Assembly: GCA_050084515.1 (NCBI GenBank)
Contig: CM114271.1
Span: 25,730,001 to 25,794,000 of the forward strand
Direction of reading: 5' to 3'
Source: Blasia pusilla
Lineage: Eukaryota
DNA length: 64,000 nt
Shown here: in pieces, positions 7,517 to 57,741 of the stretch
Layout of the letters: every line of letters begins with the position of its first letter
How positions within the stretch are numbered: the first letter of the stretch is position 1
The notes under the pieces: model-generated
Told to the model about the DNA's origin: nothing
Seen by the model: only the letters and a program-made list of their open reading frames with translations
The model's database searches: none
Position numbers and translations under genes: made by a program

Positions 7517-7603
7517 GAGGCTTGGTGTGAAGCTGTTATACCTCACAAGAAAAAGGAGGCCCCACGGCAGAGTCCTACTTCTGGTCTAGTTGGGTTATCC
7601 CCT

Positions 7604-8070: not shown

Positions 8071-8332
8071 TTTTGAGTCTTGGTATGGCCGAGCAGCGTC
8101 GACTTCGGACTATGTCTGTGGGTCTTCCACCCCTTGTAATGAGCTCGATGGTTATTGGGATGGTAGAGGCATCGGCTGGGGGTGAGGAGAGTAGTATTTT
8201 GCATCCTTGGAGTGAATGGAATGTAATGGCTGGGCATGTGGAGTTGGTTGCTCATGCTGGTGGAGGGTTATTTGCTCAGATGATGGTGTAGCTAAGGGTG
8301 TACCATCTTGTGAGGGGGTTGCGTAGCAGCCA

Positions 8333-9800: not shown

Positions 9801-10026
9801 CCCATGTACTAGCCAAGAGGATGCAACTGGGGCTAGATGGCATGGCAAGGTTGATGAGGAGGTGGTGCCAGGTTGGCATGCATCTGCCTTTTTATGTTGG
9901 TTAGGGGTGGACTCTAGTATGGAGGACCACATGACATCTTACTCTAGTCAGAGGGTAGATGGCCATCCTTCATATCCTTAGGTTAGAGATGGTGGTACGG
10001 ATCAGCGTGATATTCATGATGATGCG

Positions 10027-11446
10027 TTGGTGTTGGAGTTCCTACGGACTAGTAGGGTGCCAGGCATATTGAGTGCCAAGGAGCGAGACCGTGTTCTTCA
10101 ACGTGCTAAGAGGTATCGATTGGAGGGAACACATATTCTCCGTGTGTGGGAGGATGGTAGAGTACGAGTAGTGCCGTATTTGGCTCAGAGAGAGCGCATT
10201 GTGCGACATGCCCATGAGGAGTTGGGACATTTTGGGGTAAAGCGTACGTATAGCTTACTCCTTGGTCAGTATTGGTGGCGTGGCATGCAAACTCAGGTGC
10301 AGCAGTTGGTGTCACGTTGTATGGTTTGTGATTGGGTGAGGGCATCATTCAATGCCCCTACACCACAGTTACACCCCTTGCCTATTATGGGGTTGGGTTA
10401 CCGTTGGAGTGTGGACTTTGCGGGACCGTTACCGTTGATTGTACGACATCATCGATATGTGTTGGTGATGGTGGAGCACTTCTCCAAGTGGATTGAGTTG
10501 GTGGCATTACCTGACAAGGAAAGTGAGGGAATGGCGTACGCGTTTCTTGATAGAGTGCTTAGTCATTTTGGTGCACCAGCTGAAGTGTTGACCGACTAGG
10601 GTACAGAGTTTCAGGGTGAGTTTCAGGTCTTGTGTGACAAGGCGTTGATTGATCATCGGACCACATCTCGAGATCATCCAGAGGCGGATGGTTTGGCTGA
10701 GCGTGTGGTTCATACGGTGAAGAGGGCATTGCGCAAGCATGGCCTCTGAAGGGCATCTTGAGACAGGATATTCAGTTGCCATGGTTAGCCATGGGGTATA
10801 GGTTCAGTCGCCAAGCATCCTTGGCTTCCTTCTCACCTTATTTTTTGTTATACGGCCGAGATCCAGACTTGCCAGCATCAATTTGTCGGGAGTCTAGTGA
10901 GGTGGTGAACCTTGATGACCTAGAGATGTGGATGAGGGTGTGTTCTCAGCGGGCAGAGCTCTTTTGGAGAGTTATGCCAACAGCCTTTGAGAATCTTGCC
11001 ATTTCTCAACATAGAGATACGTTGCGGTATGCAACAATTCGAGGTGGAGGTTATCGACCATCGATTCGTAGGTTCCATGTAGGGGACTATGTCTATTTGC
11101 AGCAGATTGCACCGACAACGTTGGATGTGACGGCAGGCCGCACTATTTTACGAGTGCACGAGGTGTTAGCTTCTGGAGTTCTCATGTTGGAGGGTCGTGA
11201 TGGAGTTGTTTGGAAGGACCATGTGCGTAATTGTGCGCCATGTCATCTTCCAAATGTGGATATCTTATTGACCCAAGCTTAGCCATGATACGTGCTAGCT
11301 TGAGGTGCATGTTGTGTGGGTTTGCTAGTAACGCAGCCCGTATGTTGGTGTGTGATCGGTGTTCTAGGGGTTGGCACATGATGTGTTTGACTCCACGTAT
11401 GGATGTTGTTCCTACTGGAAGGTGGGTTTGTCCTCGATGTATTTAG
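10027..11446 (+). pseudogene. DDE integrase with C-terminal PHD finger
   Basis: HHCC (HEELGH...CMVC), WSVDFAGP, VLTD*GTEF, DGLAER, PYFLLYGRDP, then CMLC...CDRC...H..C...WVCPRC. Confidence 0.93.
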
Positions 11447-11619
11447 GAGAGGTAGATGACTTGATCTTTGTATGATATGGATTACAGATGTGCGACTAAC
11501 GATGGGGCAACCTAGCACCCGGCCTTCTGATTCGTGCACCCACGAAGGTGTATAGCATGTAGTAGATGTATAGGGCTACCTGGGAGTTAGAGGGACCTAA
11601 CCGCCAGTTAGGGGGGCAA

Positions 11620-12186
11620 GTTGTGGTACACTTATGTTTGTGGATGCTCTCGTCTATGTTATGTATGTATATGAGTATGGTATGTCAACGATGTATGTTG
11701 TATGACGATGTGGATTCGCAGGACAGCTGTCATGATCATATAGATTATGTCGTAGAGTATAGTGTGCTAGTAGAGGCCATACCTTATGTAGGACCGTAGT
11801 GGCTAGGTAGAGATCCGGTTTCATACATAGGGTTGGGGGTGACTTTCCCAGTAGAGCCCGCTCTTAGGTTGGAGGATATAGTGTGGAGTGCACCCAAAGA
11901 ACAGTCAGTTCTTTGAGTTGAGCATGTTGCGTTGGGAGTTAGCCTTGGTAGTGAGTAGAGCTCTTGGCTATGGTGTTTCTCGCATGCTTTGACCTAGATT
12001 CTCCCATCGTGGAGTGGGTTTGGCTTGATTGTATGTGATTGTATACGTGTTTTATGATAGTAGGTCTTTCACGGATTTCAGTTGTGGTACACTTATGTTT
12101 GTGGATGCTCTCGTCTATGTTATGTATATATGTGAGTATGGTATGTCAGCGATGTATGTTGTATGACGATGTGGATTCGCACGACA
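11620..12186 (+). repeat. Split terminal repeats of copy 2: B1(11620-11725)-GC-A2(11728-12080)-B2(12081-12186)
   Basis: The 106-bp block gttgtggtacac...gaca is duplicated around A2. The B1-A2 junction is the palindrome GACAGCTGTC. Confidence 0.93.
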
Positions 12187-34330: not shown

Positions 34331-36432
34331 GAGTTGTTTAAACACAACTTCCCTAGTCGGATGATGGACATGTTGGTATTCTTAGAGAGTAAGCAGAAGC
34401 GAGTAGTGGCGGGTTTCATGAGGGTTTAAGATCGGGTGGTGTTAGAGTTAAACTCTTTTGGTGGAGAGGAGAAGTAACACTAGATCCAAATGTTTCCAAA
34501 TCCCATGATGTCAAAGCCAAGTACTCTCTGATGGAGGGAAGAAGGGAGGCCGGATCTGATGGTTTCCAAATCCAACGGTGTTGGAAGTAGGCTATTGTCT
34601 GGTGGGAGGAGAAATGACATGGGATCCATTGGTTTTCAAATATAGTGGAAAAATTATCATGATAAAATTAGTGGAGGCTAGTCATAGGGCAAGTGGCAAG
34701 GCAACCGTAGAGGCAAGTGGAAGAGTGCAGTTAATGTGAGGATAAATGGTTAGATGTGGAGGAGAATTAGAGCATGGGGAGCATTTGATGAATACTTACA
34801 CACGGATGGAGTTAGTAAAAGGTATTTTTCAAGAGTCAATGCATATAAGATAGTATGTAAGGGATACTTGGAAAAAGAGGAGAGAGAGGATAGATGTGAG
34901 AGAACTTATTAAGTGTTTGATTAGTGACACTCGTAAGGAAAAGCTATAACTTGTGATGCTCACTAAGGTGGGAAACTATGGATTTGGATATTTCTTGAAA
35001 GGAGTTATATCATATGAAGAGTGGTCTTGTGTCTTAAATTTTCTTCTTAGTAAAATATAAATATCCACGGGAATAGGGCCTCCCAACTTGGAGACCTAAT
35101 AAGTGAGAATTTGAATGTTTGAATGATGGAATATGTTTGATTATGTAAAGGTCTATCGAGATTGTAGTGCAGGAATATTGTTATGCGCATACACATCACT
35201 ACACAACATACATCACTGTCTCTGAACATATACAGAAACACGCACGATCCCATGCTAACTCATGGAATCCAAACAATGAGACAAGAAGTACCAAAATATC
35301 TCCAATAACTCAATGAAATCTCACATCAACATCTCACACCAAGCTCTCCATATGTGCACTCTCTCTCATGTGAGACCAAACCCATTCTCCTATTGAGAGG
35401 CTTGGGTTACACACACAAGGCACAGAGGACCATATCTCCGCCGCCTCATGCCAAGAGGTTCAACAAAGAGACAATGAGCTCTCAAGCTCTCTCTCTTGGA
35501 GGTATATCCCCATCCCTCTCCCAAGCCCTCTCCACGGTAACCTATGCTCGTAGGTCACATCCTGGGCTCTTGACCTGATGTAGCGGGTCAAGGGACACTT
35601 CCAAAAGTGGAAAGTAATATATACCAAAAATATTAACTTACTCAAAATAGTAATTTTCTCAAAATGGCTCCAAATGATCCAAAAAAAGGGAAAACCTGCT
35701 CTAAGAGGTTACCCGTGGCCTAAGCAAGTCATCCTTGACCTCTTGAGGATGTCCTCCAGTATCTCCAAAGTCGCTCTACTTAATCTTGCCAATCTATCGT
35801 AAAAGATGTGATTCTTATTGTGCACATACACATCGCTACACAACATATATCGTTGTCATGAACATACACATCAACATGCACGATCCCATACTAACTCATG
35901 GCATCTAAACAACGAGACGAGAAGTACCAAAATATCTCCAATCGTCCCCCTAGCTAGTGGTTAGGTCCCTCTAACTCCAGATAGCCATCTATCCCTACCT
36001 ACCATGACATACATCTCTCAAACACTAAGAGAAAAAATGTTGGGTGCTCATATGGTCCCATCATTAGTCGCCTTTTTGTCATCCATGTCACAGACACAAG
36101 TCGGAATTTAGAACTACCTACTCTATATACATGTGAGACACATCCATCATCCTTAGGGAGAGATGACGTCAAACATGCCATATGCCATCCTCTCGAACAT
36201 CCACTACGGACTAGCATTGTGTTTGCACCACGGACAGAACCATACAACATACATCGCAAGCATGTAGAAACTACAGCTAAGCTCGGATCAACTATATTGT
36301 CAATTTTAGGAAGGTGACATGACGCACACTTACGCACTTGGTCCTTCCAAACCACACCATCGCATCCCTCCAATAAGAGAACACTAGATGGCAGAATCTC
36401 AGGCACTCTCAAGATGGTGCGGCCTGTAGTAA

Positions 36433-39400
36433 TGTAACTCTCTAGCTCACGGAACCACTCTAGAGTTGCTCAAAGGTAGAATGCCCTCAAGGCCTCTCCT
36501 CTTCCTTTATATACTTAGAGATAGGTACAATGAAGACAAATTAGCTCTACTTATCCTTATGCCACATGTCCTACTCTTATAGTAGGAGAGGATCTCCTTT
36601 GGAGTCTAATGTCCCAACCTCATCCTTATCTTCCTTTTCACCAACCAATGGCCCCACTCTCATCTTTATCTCTTATATCTTGTCTTTTCTCTTTTTGGTT
36701 GATTCTTTCCAGATTATGCGCTTCATGTCATAGATTCTAACTAAACTATGACTAACAAAGGATGGTTACAAACCTCCCCCCCCATTTAAGACACAACGTC
36801 CTCGTTATGAGAACTTTCAAACTCTTGCACTATTAATGGTGCGTTTGCCAAGTTGGCCGAGGATTCCCATGTGGCCTCAAATAGTGGATATCCTTTCCAT
36901 TGGACCAGATATTCAACTCGTTGGTGATGAGCTCCTCGAGTGTATTTCTTCAAGAAACGATCCACTTTAAAATCTTCATGATCTTCGACTATTTGAGGTA
37001 GTGGTGGAGTGACAATATTATCCTTAAATCTCTCAGGGCGTGGAATAAACTGTCGAAGAAGAGAGACATGAAACACAAGATGGATTTTCATATGCATCGG
37101 TAGGTCTAGCTTATACGCCACGACACTCACTTTTTGTAGGATAGTGAAAGGCCCAATATAGCGAGAATTAAGCTTACGAACTCCTACTAATGATAAATTG
37201 GTTGTTGCTAACCAAACCTTCTCCCCTTCAAAAAACTTGACATCTTGACGATGAGCATCTGCATGTTGTTTTTGTCGAATTCGGGCAATAGCCAACTTCT
37301 CCTTAGCAAGTTGAATCCCTTTCTGAATTTGGTCCACAAACTCATTAATTGCAGCTACCTTTGTAGTTTCCCTCATACTTTTTCCTATTCGAGTGAGACT
37401 AGAAGGAATTGAGGGATGCTCGCCATGCATTAAAAAGAACGGTGTGGTCTTAGTGGAAGAGTTCATGGAGTTATTGTATGAGAACTCTATTAAGGGTAAT
37501 AATGAGTCATATCCTTGTTGATCCTCCAGTGTTAAGGCGCGTAGCATATCCTTAATGGTATGGTTGGCCCTTTAAGTTTGTCCATCAATTTGAGGGTGAT
37601 AAGCCGTAGACATGACTAGTTTAGTTTGGAGAAATCCGAATAAAGCCTTCCAAAATAAACTTGTGAAATGGATTCCCCTATCAGTGACAAGCACTTTAGG
37701 AAGACCATGATGGACAAAGAATGTCTCAATGTAAATCCTATCCAACTCTGATGTAGTGACAATCTTCTTGGTCGGACGAAGGTGTATCATCTTGCTTAGT
37801 CTATCCACAAAGACCACAATAGAGTCATATCCCATGATTGTACATGGTAGCTCACAAACAAGATCCATAGTGACTTGTTCCCAACATTTTTGAGGTTTTG
37901 TGATCGGCTACAACAGTCCTGTTGGTTTTGTGTTACTAGCCTTGATTTGTTGACAAATCCTATAACCCCTTACATATACGTCAACATCTTCTCTCACTTT
38001 GGGCCAATACTATGCCCTTTGTAATCCCTTTAAGGTTTTTTCAGCTCCCATATGACCCGCAATGATTGTGTCGTGAGCTTCAGATAATACTTCAGTGCGT
38101 AATTGTGGATCTTGTGGGATCCATACTTTACCTTTATGGAAAATCAATCCTTGAGCCTTGTATACTCTATTGGCATGAATAGCAATTGCAATTTCTTCAT
38201 CCTCCTTTGTGGTTTTGGATAACTTTTTCCACCAACTAGAGTGAATCTTCACTTCAAATATATTATTCATCTATGATATACGAGTCAAGGCGTCTGCCAA
38301 CTGCTTCTTTCCTTCAATATAGACAATTTTCATCGCCATTATGTCCATCGAATTTGACGTTTGGAGAGGTCCTTTTGGGCCTCTAAGTAGACCAAGGGCT
38401 TGTAATCAGTCTCCACCACAAACTCCTTATCGCCCAAGTAATGTTTCCAATATTTGGTTGCCAAAACAATAGCAAGTTCTTCTTGCTCAGTTGTATGGTA
38501 GTTTTGCTCAGCTGGCAATAGTTTACGAGAAAAGAAGGCAATAGGATGCCATCCATCCTCCCATTCTTATTGTAGTACTCTTCCAATGCTAGTAACTAAA
38601 GCATATGTGGCCAATTTGATGGGTCGATTAGGATCATACCACTTCAAAATAGGGGCTTTGATCAAGGCATCCTTTAATGATTGAAAATAAATCTCTTGTG
38701 ATGTGCACCAATTCCAATTTTGTCCTTTCCCTAGTAAAACTCTTAAGGATTGTGCAATTTGAGCAAAACCTTTGACAAATCTTTGATAGAATCCTATTAA
38801 CCCTATAAAATTGAAGATTGAGTTTGATCTTTAAATGTACTCCATTTTTTTATTGCTTCTACCTTCTCACTCATCACTTGAATATCTTCTGCGCTTACTC
38901 GATGCCCTAGATAATCAACTTCTGTCTTACCGAACTCACATTTTGAAGCTTTAGCATACAACTCATTATCTCTTAGGATTTGAAAGACTTCTCGTAGATG
39001 ATTTATATGCTCCTCTATCATTTTACTATAGACTAAGATGTCATCTAAGAATACAATGACAGACTTGTCTAAATATGGACGAAAGATATCATTCATTAGG
39101 CCCATAAAGGTTGCAGGTGCATTAGTAAGACCAAATGGCATGACTAAGTATTAAAATTATCCATACCTCGAACAAAACACACCACCATGTAAGGCTCTTT
39201 ACCGCTTAGCTCCAAGAGAATTAGAAGAATGCAAAGCCCAAGTGCAGGAGATGTTGCAGAAAGGATTCATCCAACTAAGCGTCTCGCCATATGGAGCCCC
39301 TGTCCTTTTTGTGAAAAAGAAGGATGGAAGCATGCGACTGTGTATCGACTATCGAGCACTAAATCAACAAACAATAAAAAACAAGTATCCATTATCAAGA

Positions 39401-42210
39401 ATGGATGATTTTTTCGACCACCTACAAGGAGAAAAATACTTTACCAAACTTGACCTTCGCAGCGGCTACAACCAAATTTGAATTACGGATGAAGATGTGC
39501 AAAAGATTTGTATTCCTCCAATACTTCTCTCAACTCGTGTAGTACCTCTGAATATTTTTTCAAACCACAAACATCTCTTATTAAACATAGGAAACACACG
39601 TCTTGATGTTTGATGGCGGTTTTTCCTATTACATATAGGGTAGGGTTCTAGGACGTAATCTGACTCTATCTCCGTAAAGATAGATTATACTGTTCCATCC
39701 AAGGCATTCCCAAGATAACATCATAATGTGATAACCTAATGACCTTCATCTTCAACTCTTCCAGATACTTTCCTATCCTCAACTCTACCCTTCGAGGAAG
39801 CTTCTCAATCTTTTTTGTTTGCCCGTTTGGTAGTTCTACCTCTTCTTTTAGATCCCTCTCTAAAGCTAAGCCCACTTTCATACTTATGGCTCTTGAAAGG
39901 AAGTTTTGTGTTGCCTCAGGATCAATCAACACTCTAACTTGGGATCCTTCTACTTCCCCATCTATAACAATGAGACGTGTTTCTCCTCTCTTCAAACCAG
40001 TTACCTCCACATGTTTATGTCGACCCTCGCCTTTCCTCCTTTTGTTAGAACCAGTATATCCGTGAGGCGCAATTATTGGTGGTTGGCGTTTCCCTGAGGT
40101 CTGCCTTCTCCGTCATCTTCCTGCATGTGTGCTCCTTCAAGAAGATTAAGGGGACAACGATATGGCCTATTTTCGAGCCTACGAAGACGATAATTCATGG
40201 CTATATGACCATATCTACCACACTCAAAGCATTGGCGTGTATCTCTTCGGACTTCCAATTCTCTCCCTCCTTTAGGAATCTCGACCCCGTCGATTCGAGG
40301 AGCAATCCCCTGTATGTTGGGATTCCGATCTCTATCCATTGGCACCCTTCCATTATACCTTCATGGCGCATAACCATCTCGTGCTCAAAGGTTATCCAAC
40401 TCCATGGGTGGGGATCCGTAATGATTGTTCATGGAAGCAACCACCTCTCCTCCTCTTTCGTACACATTTGCAATTCGTTGGGCACATGCGATTGCTTCAT
40501 TGATATCTTTTGGGTTGTCTCGAATCACCTCTTGACGCACCTTCCTCTTTAAAGCTCTCTTAAGCAAATCGAGAGCTTCTGGCCCACTCATGTCGCGGAT
40601 TTGTATGTGCAAGTCACGAAACTCTTTGATGTAGTCATCCACAATGCCTTTCTGCTCCAATTTCCATAATTTCATTCTAGCAGTGAGGATTGGATCCACA
40701 TCTTGGAAATTTTGCAGCAGCTTGGAAATTTTGCAGCTTCATTCCGCTCCATGTGACTTTTTGAGTTGTTTGAATCAATAATCTCTCCCATCCTTGATAC
40801 TATGTCAATGCTTGATTGATTAACCAAGATCTTACGAACATCCCTATAGTAAAATCATCAATGTTGAAAAGGGATAAATAGATTTCTATTTGAGTGATCC
40901 AACCCTCTAATATTTCCATGGCTCGATTTCTTTTGTACTGTTCTACCTTGCATGCCTTTGTCATTTTCAATATCAATGATGCTTGAGCATTCATCTCCAT
41001 CACTCTTTGTGCTGCTTGGGCCTCCAATGCTCATGCCCTTAAGGTTTCGTCACTCTCCCCATAAGTCACGACACTCGTGGTTTCCGTCTCCATCCCACCT
41101 ATCGGAAGAACTCTCTCTCTCTCTCTCTCTCTACTCTCATATTTTTGACCGAAGCAACTTCTTGCGCTAATTCTTGGACTTGGTTTTGACTTTGATCAAA
41201 TGCAACTCTCAACTCTCTCAATTCACGAATCATATCCCTCAAAGTTTCTTCCATAATCGCTCCGACTTTCCCCTGACCCTTTACTATCACTCTAATATAA
41301 GATCAAGATATACACTTGCCAATTTCGCATAACAGGGACTACAAAAGGCAGTGTTGACGCAATGACTTCATTATAATACTCTTGGCCAAAATTCCTCACC
41401 ATAAACTCTCTATATGCTATCTTAGGTTGACAAACCACATGGACTATACATCGAGTGTTAAAAAACACTTGTGGGGGCCTATTCAAATCCATTCCCCAGA
41501 TCTCCTCTAAAACAACATATAAATAGTGCAATCCCACACACGATCATATGTAACAATAGGGAGGATCATCGGATAGCGAGACTCCATCACTTGCGTGAAA
41601 AATTCACCAAAGTGATATACGAGGTATCTCGTGAACTAGTGTCTATCTACATATAAGAGTTTGATGGTGAACGGATTAAGAAACGGGAAATTAGGAGCCA
41701 CTCTCGCTTCCCCTCCATCCATTACATGCAAAACAGCCCTTCCCCCTTATTCTACTTGCAGTTTTATAGCCACTGCCAACCTTTAACAAGCTATCTACTC
41801 TAAACAGTATATCATTACTTAATCATCCTTCCAAGAGGGGTAATCCACTCTCGTTGGAAGAGCAACCTTGCTCTGATACCATTGTAACTCTCCAGCTCAC
41901 GGAACCACTCTAGAGTTGCTCAAAGGTAGAATGCCCTCAAGGTCTCTCCTCTTCCTTTATATACTTAGAGATAGGTACAATGAAGACAAATTAGCATAGC
42001 ATCATAGCATGAGAGGATCTCCTTGGGATTCTAATGTCCCAACTTCATCTTTCTCAATCTCATCCTTATCTTCATTTTCACGAACCAATGGCCCCACTCT
42101 CATCTTTATCTCATATATCTTGTCTTTTCTCTTTTAGGTTGATTATTTCTCACTTATGCGCTTCATGTCATAGATTCTAACTTAACTATGACTAATAAAG
42201 GATGGTTACA
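36433..42210 (-). mobile_element. Chromovirus (Ty3/Gypsy with chromodomain) with conventional LTRs, nested in the copy 3 integrase
   Basis: LTRs 36433-36770 and 41883-42210 (TG...CA); tRNA-iMet PBS tggtatcagagc (41870-41881); PPT 36771-36784; TSD AGTAA/AGTGA; gag CFECGRYGH, FLDD, GPF and chromodomain EYLVQWKGYPLFEATWE. Confidence 0.95.
36786..39141 (-). pseudogene. Chromovirus RT (C-part)-RNase H-integrase-chromodomain
   Basis: [47 protein letters not shown], chromodomain. Confidence 0.93.
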
Positions 42211-44560
42211 AGTGACATCCAAAGTCGTGGGTGTCCTCTGCTCTAAGTAGTCATAGTCTCTCTGATAAAACCTCTGGATAGTAGGTCGATAACCACCTCC
42301 TCGAATAGTTGCATATCTCAACGTATCCCGATGTTGCGTAATCGCCAAGTTCTCAAATGCCATGGGCATCACTCTTCTAAAAAACTCATCCCTCTAAGAA
42401 CATGCTCGCATCCATACTTCAGGATTATCAAGGTTCAACACCTCACCAACATCTCAAAAAATGGCCGTAGATAAATCTGGCTCTCGGCCATAAAGTAGCA
42501 AGTACGGTGAGAAAGACGCTAAGGATGTATGCTTGCTGAATCTGTATCCCATCACCAACCATGGAAACAGGAGGTCCCAATCTCCTAGGTGACCTCTCTT
42601 CAAGCCATACTTGCGCAATCCTCTCTTCATCGTCTACACAACCCTTTGCGCTAGTCCATCCACCTAAGGATGATCTCGCAAAGTGGTGTGGTGGTCGATC
42701 AACGCCTGATCCAACAAGGCGTGAAACTCCCCACAAAACTCCGTACCCTGGTCTGTCAACACCTCAATTGGTGCGTAATGACTAAACACTCGATTTAGGA
42801 AGGCATGCGCTACTCCCTAAACTTTTGTAGGCAATGCAACCAACTCTATCCACTTTGAGAAGTGCTCGACCATCACAAACACTTAAAGACTGTGGCGCTC
42901 CGTCAAAGATAAAAGTCCTGCAAAATCTAAACTCCATCTATAACCCAAATCCATGATCAAAAGTGGATGCAATCGTGGAGTCATAGGATTGAACGATGCC
43001 CGGACCCGATCACAAACCATGCACACGGAAACAAATTATTGAACGTAAGTCTGCATGCCTCGCCACCAATACTATATTTGGAGCAAGCTTTATGTTTGCT
43101 TCACTCCGAAATGATCCAACTCCTTATGGGCATGACGCACCAAACGTCCTCTTTGTGAATAATGAGGCATTACACGTAGTCTACCATCCTCCCAAACTCG
43201 CAACACATGTGTCCCCTCCTACCCAAACTGTCCGGCTCGCTGTAGGATCTGATCCTGCTTTCTAGCACCCATTGTGCTCGCGACATTGCCAGTACGCAAG
43301 TACACCAAGATTACTCCATCCTCTTGAATATCTCGGCCATCTGTCATCTCCTCACTGGCCTCTGGATCTAAGAACTCTCCATCAGACCTTGCCATCAAAG
43401 TCTCCGCAATCTAGCTCCCCATAGCCATGAAGCCCAAATAGATTGACGTATGCCATCGTAGCACCAACTCCTCATCACTCTCACCATGCCACCGAGCTCC
43501 AGTTGCATCTCGCTGACTCGGGCATGGGTTACAACTCAAACCATCTCCATCTTGGTTGAGCGTCCCAAGTCTATGCACCACCAGGAAATCATACTCCTAC
43601 GACAAGAGAGTCCACCTTGCAAGCTTTCCTGTAAGCTTTTTGGACTCCATCAACCACTTAAGTGCCTGATGATCACTAATAATGGTAAAGGGATTGCCAA
43701 ATAGATAACACGTGAAATGTGCGACAAGCCACACTGCAGCCAAGCACTCACCCTCATACGAGCTATACTTTGCCTCTGCAGCGTTGTTCGAGCGACTAGC
43801 ATAAGCCACCACAAACTCTCTATCCTCATTGTCATGTCGGGTGAGCACATTTCCCAGCCCAAACATGCTCCAATCGATATGTCCCTTGATCGGTCTCCTG
43901 AATATGGGCGCGGACATCAATATGTCTTTGAGCAGTTGAAATGCTCTTTCCCGCTCATCCTCCCAGTGCCACTCCTAATCCACCTTGGTCAACAAGATCA
44001 GCGGCTTTGCAATCAAACTGAAACCCTTGACATACCGTCGATACAAGTTTGCCAATCCCATGAATGCACAAACTCCACTGACATATGTAGGGCGTGGAAT
44101 GCGCCAAGTAGCCTCTATCTTCGTCTGTTGCATAACAAGGCCACCTGGGTATATGATATGATCCAGGTATTCAATCTAATCGTAGAAGAACTTGCATTTG
44201 TCTGGATGTAGCATCAAAGATCTCCTCAAGGATGGGCATGGCATACTTATCAAACTTCATATGCCGATTGATAGGTCGATAATCTCCACACATCCGCCTA
44301 TCCGTCCAGTTGCCATGCACATCCTTCTTGGTGGGCATGACACTCGCAAATGCATACTCTCCATGCGACATCTCTACTAATTCTGCTCCAACCAAGTCCT
44401 AGCTCCTACTCTTAATCAGAGCCCTCTCCATGTCAATGTAATGCAAATCCATGGACCCTTCAATGTACTCAAATCATGCATGCTAAATGTGAAACAACTC
44501 CTATAACTCCTAGGGAACTTATGTATTTGGCGTGACTCTCCTCTTGTCAACTTAGGGCCC
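42211..44560 (-). pseudogene. Copy 3 RT (core deleted)-RNase H-integrase
   Basis: DRRMCGDYRPIN, EEIFDA joined directly to the HPxKCKFF-like region, YEGECLAAVW, AFENLAITQHRDTLRYATIRGGGY. Confidence 0.88.
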
Positions 44561-46396
44561 ATATTGGCTCCCAAGTCTCCATCGTCACTATGGTAGGACT
44601 CTTGGGCGCGGGTGTCGGTGGTTGCTATGGTGCAACCACGTCTCAAATAGAAGAACTTGGCTGCTCCCCTGTAGCCAATTGCAAACTCTGATTTCCTCCA
44701 CGTGCAGTACCCGGAACCACGCTCGATGTTGTGGTTATCATCTCTCTGTATACGTGCAAAACATCCCAAGAAGTCCAAGGGTGTCTCTCCTAATCACCCA
44801 TGGTGTGTGGATCTCCTCGGGTCTCGCCCCCAGCCACTGCCCCAACTATCATGGTAGGCATGGGGCTCACCAACGCAACAATATGCACTAGAAGGAATAT
44901 GGTGCTTTTAGCACTAAGTCACTTACAACTAAAGTCCAATAACACAAAAATACAACTACATGTAAGTTAAGTGGCCTATGTGGCAGACTGTAGTATCACT
45001 TAGTCACTAAGAATGACTAAAGGGTATGACATGGTTTTTCTTAATATAATTGAGAAAATAAAATTATTATAAATTAATGACATATCATTATAATATGACT
45101 AGATTAGTGCAAAATAACTAACACGTGGCACTTATGATAGAATTTAACTAATTAGAAAAAATAAGATTTCAATCTATAATAAGACATGTGAAAATAAGAC
45201 TATGATAATTATTTCCAAGTTGGTGTATAAGTCCCTAATTAATAATGCCACAATATTCGATATTGTTCCTCCTTCTTGTTTCTTGTTTGCAATCTGTGTG
45301 ATTTTTCCCGCAATTTTGGATCCCTTTTCCCGTGCGCACAAGTTATAGGTTGAATCGAGGTTTTTGAGAGTCGCTTGAAGAAGTACAAGCGCACCACAAC
45401 ACGAGTGGAGGTGAGGTGGATGAGTGCCGCTTGTTGTTGTTGTTAGATCAGTGCAATCGCTAGAGTGAGATCAATGCAAGCGTTGGAGTAGGACAAGACG
45501 AAAGCGAGAGGAGTGGTCGCAGGAGTTGAGGTGAGGAGCGACAGAAGCAAGCTATTATCAAGTGTTGTTGTGATATTTTGTTGTTGTTTGCATTTTGTTC
45601 TTCATGGCGCATGCCCTCTCTCTCTTTGTGAAAGCCACGCGGTCATCATAGCTAGAGTCTTAGAGTGAGTCTTCTGACCTCTCTTAAGGTTCTCTCCGCG
45701 AGAAGTTGTAAATCTGCATCCTCTCGCGCCCTCTCATTGATTGCTATCTTTTTGACAGCTTCAAGAAGCTTTTCTTTCGTATCCTGACAAAAAACCATAA
45801 AACTTCAATCACTATTTTCTAGTAGTTACACTTACCACACTTTCCGGAATGTTGCATCTTTGATAGCTAAAGTCTCTTCTCCACAACTCTGAGTGCAAGA
45901 TCATGTTTCTGAGCATTCCATAGCAGACTTTAGACGGTTCGCTGATCTCTCCTATGAACCGTTGTTTGAAGCTTCAAGATCTTTTCATATTCCTTGTGAG
46001 TTTACAATCATGGGGTCACGTAATCTTGTAGGGCATAGGGTGGAACAAACTGACCACATTTGGCGGAGGGAGTTGTCATGAAAACTCTTGTGTACTTCAT
46101 GAATCTAGATCGTGACAATGACACCAACCTCATATGAACCCACAACATAGAGAATGATGGAGAGATTTTACAGCCTTTGATCACGAATGGTCGTCATATA
46201 CATCATGTACACATAATGGTCCTCATTTTGTTTGAATCTTAAAAATTTGTGTGATGCCATGCCCGCATGCACACGAAGATGGCAACAACTTTTGGGGGTC
46301 TTCTTCAACCCACTTGGGTGGATGAATCTTCATATTTTTTTAGAAGAAAATCGTGACGATGAAGGTACGGAGAGTTGGGTTCCTAGACAGTAGAAG

Positions 46397-46572
<176 letters not shown>

Positions 46573-48751
46573 TGACAAAAAATTCACGTGAAGGTGCTAC
46601 ATTTGGAGAGTTGAAAGTAGCCAACGTGCAATGATGTTGAATAGTCGTGGATGGTCAAGGAAGCCTCTGTAATGTTGAAGGCTTTGTTGGAGACGATGGT
46701 CGAAAGTGATCGTCTCATATATCATGTTGGTATAGGAGAGTAGTGCTCTCAAGGAGGGGTTGGAGGATCGGAAGGCTCTAGTTGTCGTGTGCCTACTCTC
46801 CTTGAATGCGAGCTTGAACGTCAATCTTAGTGTTGCGGAAGCGTACGTTTAGTAGGACATGCTCTCATTGCCAACCTGCACCCAAACAGACTCACGTTAA
46901 TCTAGCTTTGGATCAATCGGCCTTCCAACCCACTGAGTCCTCAACTCGACACCTCATCAAGCTTAACCTTCCCTCATTATTAGGTTCCCAACACGGCAAG
47001 TCCTTCAAGACTTGGAACAGGCTTTCTGGTTAGTCCAAGAACCTAAAATGGCACTTGTGCGCCTAGCAATCCTAATTGTTCGACGGACCTCATGCGAGTT
47101 CATAACCGAGACTCAAGCAATTGAATCGCGGGTTGGAATCCAAGAGGGATCTCTAAAATTCACCTCAATAGACTTGGTTCAAGTTTTCAAGCCCAACTCC
47201 AAACTCTCGATCCGTTCCATGCCCTTGAGCGGCCTCGTGGCGCCTAAAGTGGGGTTCAAGTCCCAAGCACCCTAGGAGACCTTCCCCCTTACTAGTACTT
47301 CTGGGAATCTCCACCCCCCTACCTTTGGGAAAGGATGGTCAAGGCCTTCATTTTGGTCCTCAACCCGACTCTACTCAATGTCGTTTTTGAGCCGTTTCTT
47401 AGCTGGTACTTGTACGTCTCAACTAGATTTCCATAAGCTTTCCAACGCATCTTTATTCGTCCCAAATGCATCTTGGCACTAAAACTTATGGTCATAAATA
47501 CAATCAAAAACTCTCAAACGCTAGTGGCGTCCCACATCCAGATCCCTTCCTTTGGCAACCCACTTCCTAGACTTGACTCCTCTCAAGTCGTGATCCGCGT
47601 TTGGTCCACATTTCTCAATCGCGACTACAATATATGAAATGCGAAGCCTCCCTTGCGCCTCAACTCTTGTCTTTTCTCCGAGATCACTCCAAGGTGCAAA
47701 CCATCTTAACGTGAGCCCGCTAGTGTTCCGATGTTTTGCTTTGGCACTCGTTTGGTCATGAGGATCGCAACACTAGTGCTGCGTCATTAGGAAAGCACAC
47801 GTCCCACCATTGAAACTGTAAGGTCATGGGGATGTGTTCTGTCTCAATCGAGCTGATTCTCCTTCAGGAATAGAATGATGTTTTGTAGCACTGATAAGTT
47901 ATCGCACACGCTTCTGAGTAGCTACAATGTAACAATGTGTTGCACCACTTATGTGGGGCTGACGAGAGGGAGTCCAGTCATGTGTATCGGTGCTCGGCTA
48001 TGCTTTTCTTTTTGCTCCTTTTTTGCTCCCCTCCCTCCCTAAGCTCTCTCTATCATCTATGAATACGTGACTTATAGTCGGCCGACGTTTCTATCTATCT
48101 GTCGGATGGTGTTGAGCTCTGGCCAATGGATCAATGTTTCCTAAAACTCGAAAGTAGGAGAGAATCAATAAATGTGTGTGTGTCTGTTTGTACGAGAGTC
48201 GGAGCAACATTGGGAGTAATGGCAAGTGATCAATCAATCGAAAAAGTATGGATAATTAAGGAAGTCATCGCATAATTGGGAGTTATCTTGGCGGCATTGG
48301 TTGAGCCGCTGCTGCACTCACTCGCCTGATGAATTTCTTCATTGCCCGTGGCTAATAGAGTCTTTGCTTGAGGAAAGTGAAATCTTTCTTTCAAAGGGAT
48401 TGGCTTTCATTTCCTTGCATTCTAAGCACTGTAGGGTCTTAGAAAAAATGCAATGCAAGCCACATTGTTAGAATCGGACTCTAATATAACCCTCCTCTTC
48501 ATACATAGGTGTCCCATCCAGTCTTGACCTCAAGAACAAGCATCCATATCCAGATGCCTTTGCTTTAGGGAATTTGGCCGTATTTTTTCCTATCTGTTCA
48601 CTCTCGGAAGTCCATCTGAGTAGCTAGATCTCTCCTTTTTCGAAGTGTGGCTCTTACACGTAATGTTTTGGGATGAAGAAATTTTATGATCCTCCTTTCG
48701 AAACGTCATACCCTACCCAAGGCTCATGAGGTCACTCCTTTCTCCAACCAT

Positions 48752-48752
<1 letters not shown>

Positions 48753-48817
<65 letters not shown>

Positions 48818-49019
48818 GCAAGTTTTGGCAAAGCTTATAAGAAGCTACTCATGAAGCTCAATCACTGAGTGAACGTAGATCCATAGTTTACACACACTCA
48901 TAAATGGGAGGGCATATGCAAATGGTTTCTTTGTAGGAAGAAATAGGAATACATCTCTGATCCCTAGTAAAATGAAGCTAGTTGTTGAGGTTACCAATGA
49001 GGGTGAGATAGTGTATGGA

Positions 49020-49051
<32 letters not shown>

Positions 49052-49059
49052 TGAGTGAG

Positions 49060-49147
<88 letters not shown>
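48753..49147. repeat. (CT)n 48753-48816 and (GT)n(GA)n 49021-49147 microsatellites
   Basis: Direct observation. Confidence 0.97.
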
Positions 49148-49149
<2 letters not shown>

Positions 49150-50547
49150 CGCCTTAAGAGGATGTGGGGAGAAGCAAGGAGTGCTCCTGAATGTCCCACC
49201 CCGCCAGATGTAAATCCTAAAACATGAGAGAGCTTGAAAACTTGTTGGTTGTCTCCCGAGGGGAAAAATAAATCAGAGAGGATGAAAGCCAATCATGCAA
49301 AAGTGGAGCATCCAAACCGCAATGGATGACGTTGTCTAGCAAGAGTGAAGAATATTTTGGTATGACTTCTAATTTCATTTCATTCAGATTTCTTTGGTAG
49401 CATTGAATTAACTTCTGTATTTTTTAGATGATTAAGAGATTTTGACTTCATTTTGTTATGGACTTTAGAGGAAAGAAAGGGGGACAAGTCGATCTCTACA
49501 AGAGATTGAAGAATCCTTGGGAACAATGAAAGGATCCCCAAGCCAAGTGACGATGAATAAAGTTTGTCTCATATCCATTCTATTGATAAAGTGAAGTTCA
49601 ATCTTACTTTAAAAAATCCTGCCTTTACTCTAGTGTACTCTAGCATGTATTGAGGTTAGTACACAAAAACATGTAGGAAAGTTGTAGCTCACATGCTGAT
49701 ATAATCCTTTTCCAACAGGGTAATTCATTGCTTATGTAAACATGTGGAATCAAATTCTTATCTTACACTATATCTTTGTGTATGTAGAGTGGCATCTCTT
49801 CCTTGACAAATAGAAATGAAGTGGTGGAGGCAGATTTGGGTTTCCTTAAAAGTGGAATGGACAGGTTGATGGGTATGATGACAGAGTTGAAGGGCTTAGT
49901 AGCCAAGGGGCAAACATGGACACAATCTGATCTTTAGATTGTAAGAGTTGAAAAAACTCAAGGACTTTTGGTAACTCCTATCCTATCACCTGTCGCACTA
50001 GTTAGTAGAAAGATCCACACCCTATCTCTTCTCTACGAAAGCCTTCAGAGATCTCCAAAAGTATTTTTCCATCCACCACAGAAGGTGATAAAGAGACTTA
50101 TGTTTCTTTTCTTGATGTGATATATTTAGAGGCTCCTCAAAGGGAGCCTATTAATCCTCTAAGTATAGTTCGTGAACCTGAAAAAAGAAGAAGCAAAAGG
50201 AGAGCTACCACCAACTGTGAGGAAGAAGGCTCCAACACTTTTGGAGAGGAAAGAGAGGAACACTGTAAGTTTCATTTGCTATGTACTATAACATTTCTTT
50301 ACATAATTTGCTTGCTCTTGTTTGTTTGAAATTTCCAACATGGGAATAATAAGTAGTGATTCAATTTTACATTGATGAAACCCTTGCAGCATATCAACTA
50401 TTCATAAAAAATTCCCAGCTTTGGTTGGAGTTTTATGAAGGTAACATTCTTATGCATGGAAAATATCTTATAGAAATATATGTTTTGCCTACATATGGAA
50501 CCATTTAACTACACAAGCTAATGATTAGTCTTTCATGTATTGTGCAG

Positions 50548-50829
50548 TTGGCAATTGGAGACGAGGTTTTCTTGTCGTGAAATAGGAAAGGGTGGCAGCA
50601 TGTAGGTAGAGGCAAGATATCAGGCCTTGCTGGCAGAGACAAATGCCTTGGTAAAGTAATACCACTAGGAGTTGTTAAGGTGGACATTTTGATAGTTTTT
50701 GATCATGATGCTGAGCTACCTTATCCAAATATGTAGGATGACCCACCACAAATATTGGTGGTTGATGCTTTAGGTACTTCAATATTGTGGTCGGAGAGGT
50801 CATGCAAGAAAACTATTCCTGTTCCTTAG
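50548..50829 (+). pseudogene. C-terminal domain of CACTA second ORF (TnpA-type)
   Basis: GRGKISG...IPLGVVKVDILIVFDHDAELPYPN..DDPPQILVVDALGTSILWS resembles the plant CACTA ORF2 C-terminus; contains 2 stops. Confidence 0.6.
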
Positions 50830-51759
50830 TGCTAAGTGAGAATGAAACTTACTTTTCTGAACAGAAAACACATTTTTGTGCTTGTTGATCAACAACTCTT
50901 GTGTTGATCATAACTCTTTTATATTATGTTAAAGACTTTTCGATCTCATATGAAAAGTAAAGACTTTCTCCTTATGAGATTCATCTTGTGTTAAGCATAC
51001 TTTTGGTTAACAAATTGGGGCCTCAATAGTTTGATATTTGAATTCAATGAAGATTTTATATTCACTAGATAATGAGCAAACAATATTAGTCACAGAAAAA
51101 TTCCTATATATGCCTTAGTGAGGTATCACTTTCATGGTCTGCCTTCTTTCCAAGTTGATGTAAATATGATTTATAGTTATGTAACCATGTATTTTCTCAT
51201 AGTGAATATTGTATCACTACATCTAGTCAATAAGTAGTGACAACAATTTTCTAGTTTGTAAACTTCTACTATAATTAGTCATAGCCAACTTTAGATTTGT
51301 GATTGATTTTAGTCTTTATGCACTGTGCTTTGCAAATAAACACTACTTCTAGTAACAAGCAACTAAAACTAGTACAAGTCTTAGTGTAACACTATATTCA
51401 ATATAAAAAAACTAATGAATACCATATCCACGTGTCATCATGAATTATCAAATAAACATTCTCCATGTGTCATACTACAAATGAGTACAAGTAAGCTTAT
51501 ATCAAATTCCACGTGAGACTAACCCGAATAATGACTAGGCTAACATCTACTTGCAAAATGACAACTCAACAAATGTAAATCTTCCATGTCATGTTGCCAA
51601 CATGGCACTTTGCAACTAGGAATCCTTTGCAACTAGTCCTTTGATACTAGACATTGACTAGTTGTATCTTGGTAGTAGGCATCCCATAGAACTAGATACA
51701 CTTGAAACTTCTAGTGGCTACTTGGGCAATTCCTTCTACAGGCAGCGATCTGTCGCAAC

Positions 51760-52700
51760 CTCAAACGACGCTGCTCAACTACTCCTAAGCTGAAAATCCA
51801 TGTCAAATAGTTAAAGTCCATTGCCAGGCCCATGACATGAGGTCGTGATGCCTCCAATAGTGACGGTATTTTTGTCACTCGTATGGGAAATTCCATCGCT
51901 CGCTCTCGCTCATCGGCATTGGGCTCTTCCAACCGCTGTACATGGTCATCCCAAACCAAGCCAGGTCCAACCTCCTTGAATGCATAAGAAGCAAAAAAGC
52001 TCACAAATGTGGGAAAGGCTGCCCATGGTATGCCAGTCCTCTAGACCACAATCAAGAGAGGTCAATCATCGTGACGTACTACCTGTGATCGGAGGGGTGC
52101 TCCATCCTCGCATACGCCCTCCGTAAAACCTCATGTGGCACCAAGTTGCTCCACCAAAGACGTGGGTGATATGCTCATGAACCTACACTCGCCGCAATCC
52201 AACAACACTGCCGGGCCAATCCATGTGCACACCTGATGTGTACTCGTCATCACGCGGGACCTTGAATCGCCTAAAATTGCACATTTTTTAGAATGTATTC
52301 TGGAGAACGAGACTGATGCTCCTGCAAGTGTCACAAGATCCGCATCATCTCCCAAAACAACTTGGATCGAGTGTCAGTCAACCCGGTACCTCTTCCAACA
52401 CTTGATTGGCCCTGACACAGACAACCAACAATGACCAAATCTATGGTCCCTACCCGCTCTAAGTCCTGCGCCCCCAACAATGAAATGTCCCTCGATAGGG
52501 AACTCTGGTACCCATGGACGGCGGACGTAGACAATAAGGCGGGAAATCGAAGGCGTAACTTCGCCATATGGTGAAGTGAAGCGCATCTCGCAACATCATC
52601 AATGTCAATGTACAGGTATAATTGCACGCGCACTTTAGGCTGCAAAATAGTAGCTAAGCCAGTGTTGATCCCTCCAAAGAGATCCAACACACAAATATCC
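51760..52700 (-). pseudogene. Complete but mutated DNMT3-like C5 DNA methyltransferase domain of copy 3
   Basis: Motif I VLDLFGGI; IV DLVIVGCLCQG; VI YILKNV (from ENV); VIII DAASVGS*AYHPRLWWSNL; IX EPNADERERAMEFP; X HVMGLAMD. Confidence 0.88.
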
Positions 52701-55700
52701 TACTCTAGGATGCACCACACAATCAGGGGGTGGTATCCAAAAGGGTCATAGTTGCATTATTGGCTACCTCAGGGTTCCTCTGACCCGTCACGCTTAGGTG
52801 CAAACGCCTCACTCCAGGCCGTCTATACGTGCTCATCAGATAAATATTGGAGCTCCTCACTCGAGCCCCACAACGACACCTCTTCTCCACGAAATGATGC
52901 GGCTACCATAACATTTCTCCCCCTAGAAGTTTTTGGCGTGGGGGTTTCCTCTGCATGGACATGCTCCTCAATCAAATTAGAAGGCCAAGTCATGGCGTTG
53001 CTAAATGCTGCTAAAGTTGCCATCTCTAATGGCGGTCGCTAAATTATTCCAACCGTGAATCTAACGGATAATGAACTAAGTCACCCATCATCAAAATGCC
53101 ATCTTGGTTTGTAGGATGCTAAATCCTCCGAGTAATCGAGGGAAAACCCATCGGATACAACACTTCTCCATCAACCAAGATGTCGTAGGACTCTGTATTG
53201 GTCACTATCGCCTTGGCTCGCACCACGGGCTCATCAGTAGGATGTATTGGGCAAATCCTCACCACAACCTCCTATTGGATGATAAACTATGTGGTACTCG
53301 CTCCACCCAAGGATGTTTGTATTCGGAATGGAAGACGCTCCACATTTGCCCTTGTCAAGCCTAAACTCGTGAATGCGGCCTTCCCGAACATCAGGGATTA
53401 CGCTCATAAATCTAACAAGACATGCTGCAGACAAAACAATCTACCTCATGGACTCACCAACTGGAAGATTTTTTCCCGATTTATCCAACAACACAACACC
53501 TGGAGCAACCATGGCACATTGTGTCGCGGATCTAGCGAACATCTCCACCATCCTAGCAACTGTAACCTACCATCAATTTGAGGTGGACGGACCGAGCATC
53601 GGCTCGAAGGGCAAGTCCATCACCTCCTCTACAATCATCTCTGAATGTGATGCAGGAATACCATCTCCACGCTCACATAGCCGAGGTTTTTGGGCCAATC
53701 GAAAAACCTCGACGGGCGTAGCTTCCAACGTCATAACATTGGAAGCTGAAAACAAAGGAGCACGGTACACCATTGTGGCCACTCCCAACATCGTACTCGA
53801 TGTTGGGGGCGACCAACATCGTACAGACTATTGCATAAGCAATAGCCTAGCCACCCCCAACGTCATACGGACTATTGCATCAACAATAGGAGTTGTCGCA
53901 ATCGCTTCTCCCATCGCCCTCTGTGCCTGCACACCAACAACATCAACTCTCCGGGAACTCAAATCAAGACCCATCGATGGGGTCCTCATTGCCTTGGACA
54001 ATGTGAAAGATTGAGGAAGCCTGGTGTGTTTCTTGGCTTCCCCTCTTTATGGATCCCACTCTACGGCGGCTCCACGTGTAACAAGAGTGGTTGCCTCCAA
54101 TTGGAAAATCACGCACATCCAGCCATGATCCTCCATATCTCCGACTGCTCCATAAGACGTCGATGCCACTCATTCAACATCGAGTAACCAACCTGCCATA
54201 GCGGAAATCTGATGTTGTAGCTTCTGTATCTAAGCAACCATCCTAGCCTCACACTCAGCATCTCCCTCAACATGTCTTGGTGGCGCAACTCTACCTCCTC
54301 CACGGGAAACTCCACCACTCCCTCAGGCAAATCCTGCTCCGCGTCCCCCAACAGGACCACTTGGTGCACGACCTCTAGGCCTATTCGGACCAAGAACTCA
54401 CTCTGGTGCCCTCTCTGGCCCTCGGTCTGGACGTAACTCAGTGTGTAGGCTGAAACACTTGGCTCGTGTGTGACCGTATCTTTGACAATAGTTACATTGA
54501 TAAACTCTTCGTGCAGCACCATCTCCTCCTCCATGCTGAGGCACGCGTTAATGACGGTTATGAGTGCAATCGCGCTAGTGATGGGCTCCACCATATGCCC
54601 AACAAATAATCGCAAGCGGTTGCTACTAAGACGCATATGAGGGCGCACATCTTTGTGGCACGGCCTCACCATATCCTCCCTGAGCTCGTGGTGCCACATA
54701 CCTATCTCGAAATCCACGTTGCTACAATGGTGGTGTAGACAATCGTGACTACTCTGGCCTAGAAACCATGGTGGCTATGCTCTCCTCCTCCATGTTACGG
54801 TCAATGTTCTTGGCGGTCGTAAAAACATCTCTCAACGTAGGTGAGATGTGCATAAGAAGCACTCCATCCCTCACCCACGTCCTCAGGTTTTGGTCCAGCA
54901 TCGCGTACCATGACTAGATAGCCTGGGACTCTATCACCCCCTAAGTAACGCTAATCAACCGGCGGAAAAGAGTGTAGGCCTCATGCAAACTCTCCCCCGG
55001 ATGCCTCTGGAAGTCGTGGATGCCCCGCAACTTTGTCGTCTGTACCTGTGGTAGCTCGTCCGCAAAGAACTCAACCACGGGGTTGAACCTGGGACAAACC
55101 CGATTGGATGGTGCAACTGCTCCAGTTCAAGTTACCCCTCCTGAAACATCATTGGTGGAAGAGGAAGTAGCCTCTTACGACTCCTCCTCCTCATATGGAA
55201 ATGGCTCAGTCCATCACACATAATGTGGGTCATAGTAGAGTCTCCATGCCTCAATCTCCTCGGCATATTGGTGGGAGAACTCACGGTAATCGTCCATGGG
55301 CGCCCCCTCTAAATATTGGAACATACCGTTCCATAATGTAAACGAGTTGAACTCTATGGAGTTCCTAACCCGTTGTGAGTCACACCAACTCCTAAACTCT
55401 GCAATAAAGTCGTGCAACTCTATAGTGCCTATAGCATCCAAAAACCTATGCGGCCCTCTACCTCGGTCGTCCATCTCTTACGGCCAACTGGTAGGACCAC
55501 TCAATATATGATGTGAATCACTAACATAATCCTCTACACTCTCCCCCTCGTCTGAAGACAACATAGAAGGAGATCAAGGTGGTCTCTTACGTGGAGACCC
55601 TCGAAACCTTACGCCACTCCACGTAAACCCTCTAGAGCTACTCTCAAGTCCACCACCTTACCTCTCAAAGTTCTGAAAGGATGCCGTCATGATCCTCGTG

Positions 55701-57220: not shown

Positions 57221-57741
57221 ATTCTCTCTTTGTAACTCAATGAAATCTCACATCAACATCTCACTCTAAGCTCTCCATGGTGTGCACTCTCTCTCATGTT
57301 AAACCAAACCCACTATCCTATTGAAAGGTTTGGTTACACACACAAGGTAAGGAGGACCATAACTCTGCCGCCTCATGCTAAGAGGTTCAACAAAGAGAGA
57401 ATGAGCTCTCAAGCTCTCTCTCTTGGAGGTATACCCCCTTCCCTCTCCCAAGCCCTCTCCACGGTAATCTATGCTTGCACGTCACCTCCTTGGCTCTTGG
57501 CCTATTGTAGCGGGTCAAGGGCCACTTCCCAAAGTAGACACCTAACTATACCAAAAACAATAACTTACCCGAAATAGTAAGTTCCTCCAAATGGCTCCAA
57601 ACAAGCCGAAACAAAGGGGAAACCTGTTGTGAGAGGTTACCCGTGGCCTCAACAGGTCATCCTCAACCTCTTGAGGCTGTCCTCCAGTATCTTCGAAGGC
57701 GGTCTACTAGATCTCGCTTATCTATCCTAAAAGGCGTGACA
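57221..57741 (-). repeat. A1 repeat of copy 3 plus adjacent self-priming site
   Basis: A1 is homologous to 35307-35813 and 475-991. The sequence following A1 on the element strand (caaagagagaat) is complementary to the A-internal attctctctttg, located about 30 nt after a TATA. Confidence 0.85.

Follow-up and report, generated by a model that had tools for sequence, protein, structure and literature searches.

The window, that is, the whole stretch of 64,000 nucleotides of Blasia pusilla DNA that was analyzed (positions 25,730,001 to 25,794,000 of contig CM114271.1, assembly GCA_050084515.1), holds the remains of a Ty3/gypsy-like retrotransposon family on both strands (Table 1). One of these, here called copy 2, spans 3272-12186 on the plus strand and reads, in order, A1, gag, protease (PR), a methyltransferase (MT) remnant, reverse transcriptase (RT), integrase (INT), a PHD finger and B1-A2-B2. 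Long stretches of its gag, PR, RT and INT remain open. The protease ORF has no Pfam match of its own and was recognized by its alignment to the Pfam-annotated protease of P0005, one of the related proteins described below. Another element lies on the minus strand, and the 3' end of a third copy is cut by the window edge. The split A...B-A-B repeats and the PHD finger after the integrase, both part of the original prediction, are indeed present: the repeats frame copy 2 and the minus-strand element, with the 3' part, B-A-B, found in the third copy as well, and the PHD finger of copy 2 scores well above the PF00628 cut-off. In the minus-strand element, the 3' end of pol includes a decayed PHD-like stretch without a Pfam match.

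Table 1. Coordinates of the retrotransposon features in the window
Feature	Position	Strand	Evidence or remark
Third copy, 3' end, cut by window edge: pol end 16-343, B1 345-473, A2 490-975, B2 992-1114	16..1114	+	
Copy 2, 5' repeat A1	3272..3637	+	89.9% identity to A2 11730-12080
Copy 2, gag 4780-6328 and protease 6398-7516 (LLDSGA motif)	4780..7516	+	
Copy 2, MT remnant, internally deleted	7580..8108	+	tblastn, alignment
Copy 2, RT 8327-9487 and integrase 9982-11282	8327..11282	+	RVT_1, E = 1.3e-30; Integrase_H2C2, rve
Copy 2, PHD finger, C-terminus of pol	11306..11440	+	PF00628, E = 4.6e-11, 43 bits vs cut-off 24
Copy 2, 3' split repeats B1 11619-11725, A2 11730-12080, B2 12080-12186	11619..12186	+	B1/B2 96.3% identical
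Minus-strand element, 3' split repeats B1 35815-35942, A2 35310-35800, B2 35173-35306	35173..35942	-	B1/B2 86.0% identical
Minus-strand element, 3' end of pol	35946..36433	-	blastn, 67% to copy 2 11134-11615
Nested chromovirus (RT, integrase, chromodomain)	36427..42211	-	sits in integrase region of minus-strand element
Minus-strand element, RT and integrase	42187..44562	-	blastn, 70% to copy 2; tblastn
Inserted DNA, about 6.9-7.2 kb, unclassified, splits MT from RT	44563..51743	.	copy-2 coordinates continue across, 8101 to 8368
Minus-strand element, decayed DNMT3-like C5-methyltransferase	51771..52696	-	tblastn, PF00145, alignment, motif table
Minus-strand element, aspartic protease region, decayed	52826..54046	-	tblastn with copy-2 PR ORF
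Minus-strand element, gag region, decayed	54092..55459	-	tblastn with copy-2 gag ORFs
Minus-strand element, 5' terminal repeat A1	57237..57726	-	85.9% identity to A2 35310-35800, 491 columns

Several other features share the window. A multi-exon gene for cobalamin-independent methionine synthase (MetE) runs from 24071 to about 19900 on the minus strand; its exon 1 is 92% identical to that of Marchantia polymorpha, 84% to that of Calypogeia fissa and at most 82% to those of the other plants listed. These values indicate a liverwort as host, most likely a species other than M. polymorpha, in line with the land plant that the original prediction had presumed. A direct repeat, 18397-18570 and 25314-25487 (71%), flanks this gene. 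Directly after copy 2, a short ORF at 12234-12482 (+) resembles the P-loop of PIF1-like helicases (PF05970, E = 6.4e-5, below the cut-off) and may be a Helitron fragment. Finally, a 369-residue open frame at 14823-15932 (+) matches no Pfam family at E <= 0.01 and probably belongs to some other mobile element.

No tyrosine recombinase match was found among the window ORFs scanned, and the integrase ORF matches Integrase_H2C2 and rve. A DIRS element was rejected on these two grounds.

The minus-strand element

The original prediction treated the methyltransferase-bearing segment on the minus strand as a separate copy, its copy 3. This part of it probably does not hold. The gag-PR-MT block (55459-51744) and the RT-INT block (44562-42187) are probably the 5' and 3' parts of one nested element, 35173-57726, since they lie on the same strand, are contiguous in the coordinates of copy 2 (8101 to 8368), and are flanked by A1 on one side and B1-A2-B2 on the other. 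Two insertions interrupt it. The DNA at 44563-51743, between MT and RT, is AT-richer, with (CT)n/(GA)n arrays and without long ORFs; the only repeats found in it were CT/GA microsatellites. Long microsatellites of the (CT)n and (GA)n/(GT)n types occupy 46378-46611, 48719-48856 and 49003-49162; two seeming inverted repeats, I4 and I5, consist of them. The second insertion is a chromovirus with LTRs at 36612-36771 and 42052-42211 (92% identical) and an integrase carrying SH3_Tf2-1 and a chromodomain.

The methyltransferase remnants

Between the protease and the RT of the minus-strand element, at 52696-51771, lies the remnant of a C5-cytosine methyltransferase. In tblastn searches with the unbroken relatives P0013 and P0007, it appears as two blocks with a joint E of 6e-47, a match far above chance level. 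The first, in frame -1 (52696-52088; 38% identity to P0013 over 204 columns), contains motif I (DLFGGI), motif IV (GCLCQGQS), motif VI (LKNV) and motif VIII (AYHPRLWWSN). The second, in frame -3 (52127-51771; 44% identity over 101 columns), contains the target-recognition region (TRD), motif IX (ERERAMEF) and motif X (GLAMDFN). Thus tblastn, the alignment and the motif table confirm, on the minus strand, the six motifs I, IV, VI, VIII, IX and X in the canonical order in which they had originally been reported. Two stop-to-stop ORFs cover much of this region: 52331-52699(-) reads DICVLDLFGG...GCLCQGQS..., and 51711-52040(-) reads ...EPNADERERAMEFP...GLAMDFNYLTW. PF00145, the family that the original prediction named, matches the former above its Pfam cut-off (E = 4e-6, 26.9 vs 22 bits). 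The latter and all three methyltransferase pieces of copy 2 gave no Pfam match when scanned singly, so that Pfam detects one of the five right-frame pieces in the window. In place of the HMMER search on a consensus that the original prediction had suggested, profiles built from natural relatives were used.

Copy 2 had been said to carry the same domain at the same position in pol. The position is indeed the same; of the domain itself, only motifs I and IV (7580-7927, frame +2) and motifs IX and X (7932-8108, frame +3) are left. Motifs VI and VIII and the TRD have gone with the loss of 172 residues (positions 123-296 of the P0013 domain). In addition, there is a frame change and one stop, and motif IV reads GWQC, with QC in place of PC.

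The minus-strand copy is damaged in a different way. It contains seven in-frame stops, its frame shifts at least once, and near 52090-52127 there is a gap of some 12 residues. Its motifs have drifted from those of its relatives, with GCLCQGQS for GWPCQGHT in motif IV, LKNV for LENV in motif VI and AYHPR for AHRPR in motif VIII. The catalytic residues are altered: LC for PC, KNV for ENV, and YHPR at the RxR position. Both local domains have thus been inactivated, by stops, frameshift, deletion and catalytic-residue changes.

Terminal repeats are 86-96% identical within elements, and CpG is depleted in the element parts (observed/expected 0.58-0.72, vs 0.89 in the neighboring MetE locus), from which we conclude that both insertions are old. 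A matching excess of TpG+CpA accompanies the CpG depletion, a pattern that fits long-term methylation and deamination. Past selection has left a trace: when the two local copies are compared, pN is lower than pS in the methyltransferase (0.31 vs 0.62; 0.19 vs 0.66) and likewise in RT and INT, with Ks saturated (above 1.3), which makes the Ka/Ks values rough.

Might a working methyltransferase nonetheless be expressed from this locus? Six motifs are recognizable, and copy 2 has its long open gag, PR, RT and INT stretches. This idea is contradicted by the stops, the frameshift and the motif changes of the minus-strand copy, by the loss of motifs VI and VIII and the GWQC motif of copy 2, by terminal repeats that are 4-14% diverged, and by the two nested insertions that break the minus-strand element, unless there are sequencing errors at all these sites. 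We consider it highly improbable. As non-functional relics, the local copies methylate nothing from this locus, which is itself a fossil without a function of its own.

Affinity to DNMT3

The affinity of the domain was judged from the family profile and the predicted fold of a relative, in place of the broken window sequence, whose 122-residue piece alone matches DNMT3A with only E = 0.026. A profile of 19 relatives was compared with the PDB sequences. The best matches were DNMT3A (4e-26), DNMT3C (7e-24) and DNMT3B (9e-24), followed at a distance by NtDRM (6e-13), DRM2 (4e-9) and M.HhaI (6e-8); DNMT1 was absent at E <= 1. The alignment of the profile with DNMT3A is colinear, with no circular permutation. 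In contrast, DRM is matched through its rearranged half only (profile positions 88-217), at least 13 orders of magnitude more weakly than DNMT3A.

The fold points in the same direction. Among unbroken relatives, P0285 is nearest to copy 2 (74% identical to the N-terminal half of its methyltransferase), and its AlphaFold model has a pLDDT of 89.4. With Foldseek, the best match of this model is DNMT3A (6f57_D, E = 1.5e-19, TM 0.84), and the best 50 matches listed, with near-duplicate chains omitted past rank 10, are all DNMT3A, 3B or 3C. Profile and predicted fold therefore support the original assignment of the family as DNMT3-like and colinear rather than permuted like DRM. The tree described below contains no host DNMT3, DRM or bacterial outgroups, so the DNMT3-derived reading rests on the profile E-values and the fold.

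Since liverworts have DNMT3 genes of their own, such as MpDNMT3b (Mp5g09290; bioRxiv 10.1101/2021.02.12.428880), the methyltransferase pieces might be imagined as remains of such a gene, or of a host DNMT3 pseudogene, lying by chance beside retrotransposon debris. However, the PR-MT-RT position is identical in the two local copies, the same order recurs within unbroken single ORFs of relatives, there are no introns, and the best matches are transposable element (TE) polyproteins instead of host DNMT3. A host origin of the pieces can hardly be credited in the face of this evidence.

Relatives and their pol layouts

When the 122-residue piece of the minus-strand copy was searched against 1.84 billion representative proteins, 434 relatives were found at E <= 1e-3. 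Pfam scans of 23 long or top-ranked relatives detected PF00145 in 18, a reverse-transcriptase domain in 13 (RVT_1 in 12, RVT_2 in one) and rve in nine. Two of the proteins, P0122 and P0157, carry CCHC, PR, MT, RT, RNase H and INT in this order in a single ORF, and P0318 of M. polymorpha has MT, RVT_1 and RNase H in one ORF. Together with the two local copies, these single ORFs bear out the original claim that the methyltransferase belongs to the retrotransposon and sits between protease and RT.

Two layouts of pol occur among the relatives. The PR-MT-RT layout of the window elements is also found in P0005, P0091, P0122 and P0157. In eight other proteins, including a Scenedesmus 'pol', the order is RT-RNase H-MT-INT(-PHD). 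Separately, a 1417-residue metagenomic relative (P0034, P0280, P0281) carries, besides the C5-methyltransferase, a Dam-type N6-adenine methyltransferase (PF05869, E = 6.5e-12), which recalls the 'EpiLTR' elements of a 2026 preprint (10.64898/2026.05.21.726589).

The stretch at 52696-51771 is thus very likely the methyltransferase remnant of a Ty3/gypsy-like family with A...B-A-B repeats, in which Pol comprised gag (CCHC), protease, a DNMT3-like C5-methyltransferase, RT, RNase H, a DDE integrase and a PHD finger; the place of RNase H in this order is taken from the relatives P0122, P0157 and P0318.

Distribution and phylogeny

Thirty representative relatives were looked up by source: seven are from Closterium and one is from Scenedesmus. 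Klebsormidium was absent from these 30 and from the named entries of the searches restricted to longer proteins. One such search, at 3108-5000 residues, returned five giant polyproteins, of which one is from Haematococcus lacustris. With the N-terminal methyltransferase piece of copy 2 as query, 47 matches were obtained among longer proteins: 11 from M. polymorpha, three from Calypogeia fissa, five from Sphagnum and 28 unnamed. The liverwort and Sphagnum entries are gene models of the gypsy-DNMT3 kind labeled 'hypothetical protein'. Judged by these proteins, the kind extends beyond a single charophyte, to liverworts, Sphagnum mosses and Closterium.

The catalytic motifs are mostly kept in the gene models from M. 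polymorpha, Calypogeia, Sphagnum and Closterium. Ten M. polymorpha models had 180 or more aligned residues; of these, nine keep PC, all ten keep ENV and eight keep RxR. Being predicted gene models, these relatives do not imply an uninterrupted genomic ORF. The catalytic PC, ENV and RxR residues, to which the original prediction had drawn attention, are therefore altered or deleted in the local copies and mostly retained in M. polymorpha.

A maximum-likelihood tree was built from 60 methyltransferase sequences, near-full-length domains only, drawn from about 210 proteins; it was rooted at the midpoint, and support is by SH-aLRT only. Both window copies and all the M. polymorpha and Calypogeia sequences used fall in one clade of 16 (SH-aLRT 100). 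Two metagenomic PR-MT proteins adjoin this bryophyte clade, and beyond them is a clade (support 95) containing Closterium proteins. The proteins with the RT-RNase H-MT-INT layout form a separate clade (support 98). The two pol positions thus lie in two separate methyltransferase clades, and modules must have moved at least once. Within the bryophyte clade, the window copies belong to different sub-lineages, copy 2 near P0285 and the minus-strand copy branching deep. The M. polymorpha domains cluster tightly, with end branches of 0.003-0.1, which suggests a recent amplification in that species.

How the bryophyte elements came by their DNMT3 can be read in two ways. They may have gained it independently or received it by horizontal transfer of the element, and not from the charophyte Gypsy-DNMT3 lineage. 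Such a history would accommodate the two pol positions in separate clades. It would also account for the methyltransferase of copy 2 being closer to Calypogeia (76%) and Sphagnum (68%) than to Marchantia (64%), although MetE in the same window is closest to Marchantia. Moreover, de Mendoza et al. (2018; PMC5890265) place an acquisition 'in the K. nitens lineage'. Against this, the same article reports the same repeat layout for K. nitens, and in our tree the nearest named relatives of the bryophyte clade are PR-MT elements of Closterium, a zygnematophyte. Since land plants have their closest algal relatives in the zygnematophytes, this pattern fits vertical descent. On balance, we regard independent gain or transfer as unlikely.

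Vertical descent can be carried further. Split-repeat gypsy elements with DNMT3 and a PHD finger may form one ancient lineage that passed from streptophyte algae (Closterium, Klebsormidium) to the bryophytes and was amplified recently in M. polymorpha with its catalytic motifs kept. Land plants would then still host TE-encoded de novo methyltransferases, with the element's own cDNA or its new insertions as targets. This full scenario is speculative, and we would not bet on all of it. If it is true, TE methyltransferases perhaps leak onto the host methylome, and a plant amenable to genetics becomes available for testing the role of TE-borne DNMTs. M. polymorpha offers genome editing as well as published methylomes, so the function of a TE-encoded DNMT is open to experiment there.

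A possible role for the methyltransferase

Hosts fight transposons chiefly by cytosine methylation, which makes a transposon with a de novo methyltransferase of its own a paradox. We offer one solution tentatively, as a possibility of somewhat less than even weight. In active relatives, the methyltransferase would be made within Gag-Pol and released by the protease, and the freed enzyme would then methylate de novo the element's own new cDNA or a fresh insertion. The original prediction placed such an activity, on cDNA or circles, inside the particle, where it would likewise be hypothetical. The PHD finger on the integrase may in turn read histone tails and so steer integration, a part played in chromoviruses by the chromodomain. 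A related idea, self-methylation of cDNA, has been proposed for the DIRS class (PMC5890265).

Alternatively, the methyltransferase of active relatives may act on RNA or host DNA, or serve only as a structural or binding module, and leave the element's cDNA alone. The K. nitens domain showed no DNA methylation activity in yeast, a result its authors call inconclusive, and for the LINE class they raise RNA methylation (PMC5890265). Motif IV may point the same way: seen in 104 of the 164 family proteins examined (P0005, P0011, P0020, P0041, P0091, P0122 and others), it reads GWECQG in 53 and GWPCQG in 46. On the other hand, PC, ENV and RxR are kept in most bryophyte copies, pN is below pS in the methyltransferase, and SymbioDIRS-Dnmt3 domains methylate CG de novo in yeast (PMC5890265). 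We consider a role away from the cDNA doubtful, if a serious competitor to the self-methylation proposed above.

The GWECQG form replaces the canonical Pro of Pro-Cys with Glu. It occurs in both pol layouts, and the Closterium proteins checked all have it except P0060 (GWSCQG). It may be a catalytic loop that is non-canonical but conserved, or it may mark a loss of activity.

Comparison with known systems

Capture of a DNMT by a retrotransposon has the precedent that the original prediction cited in Klebsormidium and Symbiodinium, namely, KnitGypsy-Dnmt3 and SymbioDIRS-Dnmt3 (PMC5890265). The combination with split repeats, which it called notable, is not new, as the legend to Fig. 4c of that article already describes DIRS-type repeats paired with gypsy domains and DNMT3 in KnitGypsy-Dnmt3. 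The kind of element is uncommon and already described; its extension to land plants we did not find in print. Indeed, outside subscription journals and supplements (those of PMC5890265 and PMC12344493 may list copies), we found no published description of DNMT-bearing retrotransposons in bryophytes, and in the same literature no mention of six M. polymorpha gene identifiers. The available part of the 2026 preprint (10.64898/2026.05.21.726589) still cites only 'streptophytes (Gypsy-DNMT3)' from PMC5890265.

Host DNMT3A, 3B and 3C resemble the TE family in giving the best profile and fold matches and in the colinear order of their motifs; for motif VIII and the residues after it, the TE family has AHRxRLWWTNL where DNMT3A has AHRARYFWGNL. 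They differ in that identity in the fold alignments is about 20-23%, and in that the TE domain is embedded in a polyprotein, with no PWWP or ADD beside it. Plant DRM1/2 belong to the same superfamily and are found in the same hosts but, unlike the TE family, are circularly permuted. Chromoviruses, like the window elements, have a chromatin-reader module fused to the C-terminus of the integrase; the reader is a chromodomain there and a PHD finger here.

SymbioDIRS-Dnmt3 of Symbiodinium also carries a Dnmt3-type domain within Pol, and its repeats are arranged A-coding-B-A-B (PMC5890265). However, it uses a tyrosine recombinase, whereas the window elements have a DDE integrase (Integrase_H2C2, rve).

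The closest known system is KnitGypsy-Dnmt3 of Klebsormidium nitens, a gypsy element with an unrearranged Dnmt3 inside Pol (PMC5890265). It resembles the window elements in that a Dnmt3-type domain without rearrangement lies inside a gypsy-type Pol, and shares with them the A...B-A-B repeats, the lack of introns and signs of purifying selection on the DNMT (Ka/Ks < 0.2 in KnitGypsy-Dnmt3; PMC5890265). The host here is a liverwort and not a charophyte, the window copies are dead, and they have a PHD finger after the integrase; the word PHD is absent from the main text of PMC5890265. As far as sequence can tell, the window elements have every architectural feature of the KnitGypsy-Dnmt3 kind, a kinship suggested by architecture and DNMT3 affinity rather than by a joint tree.
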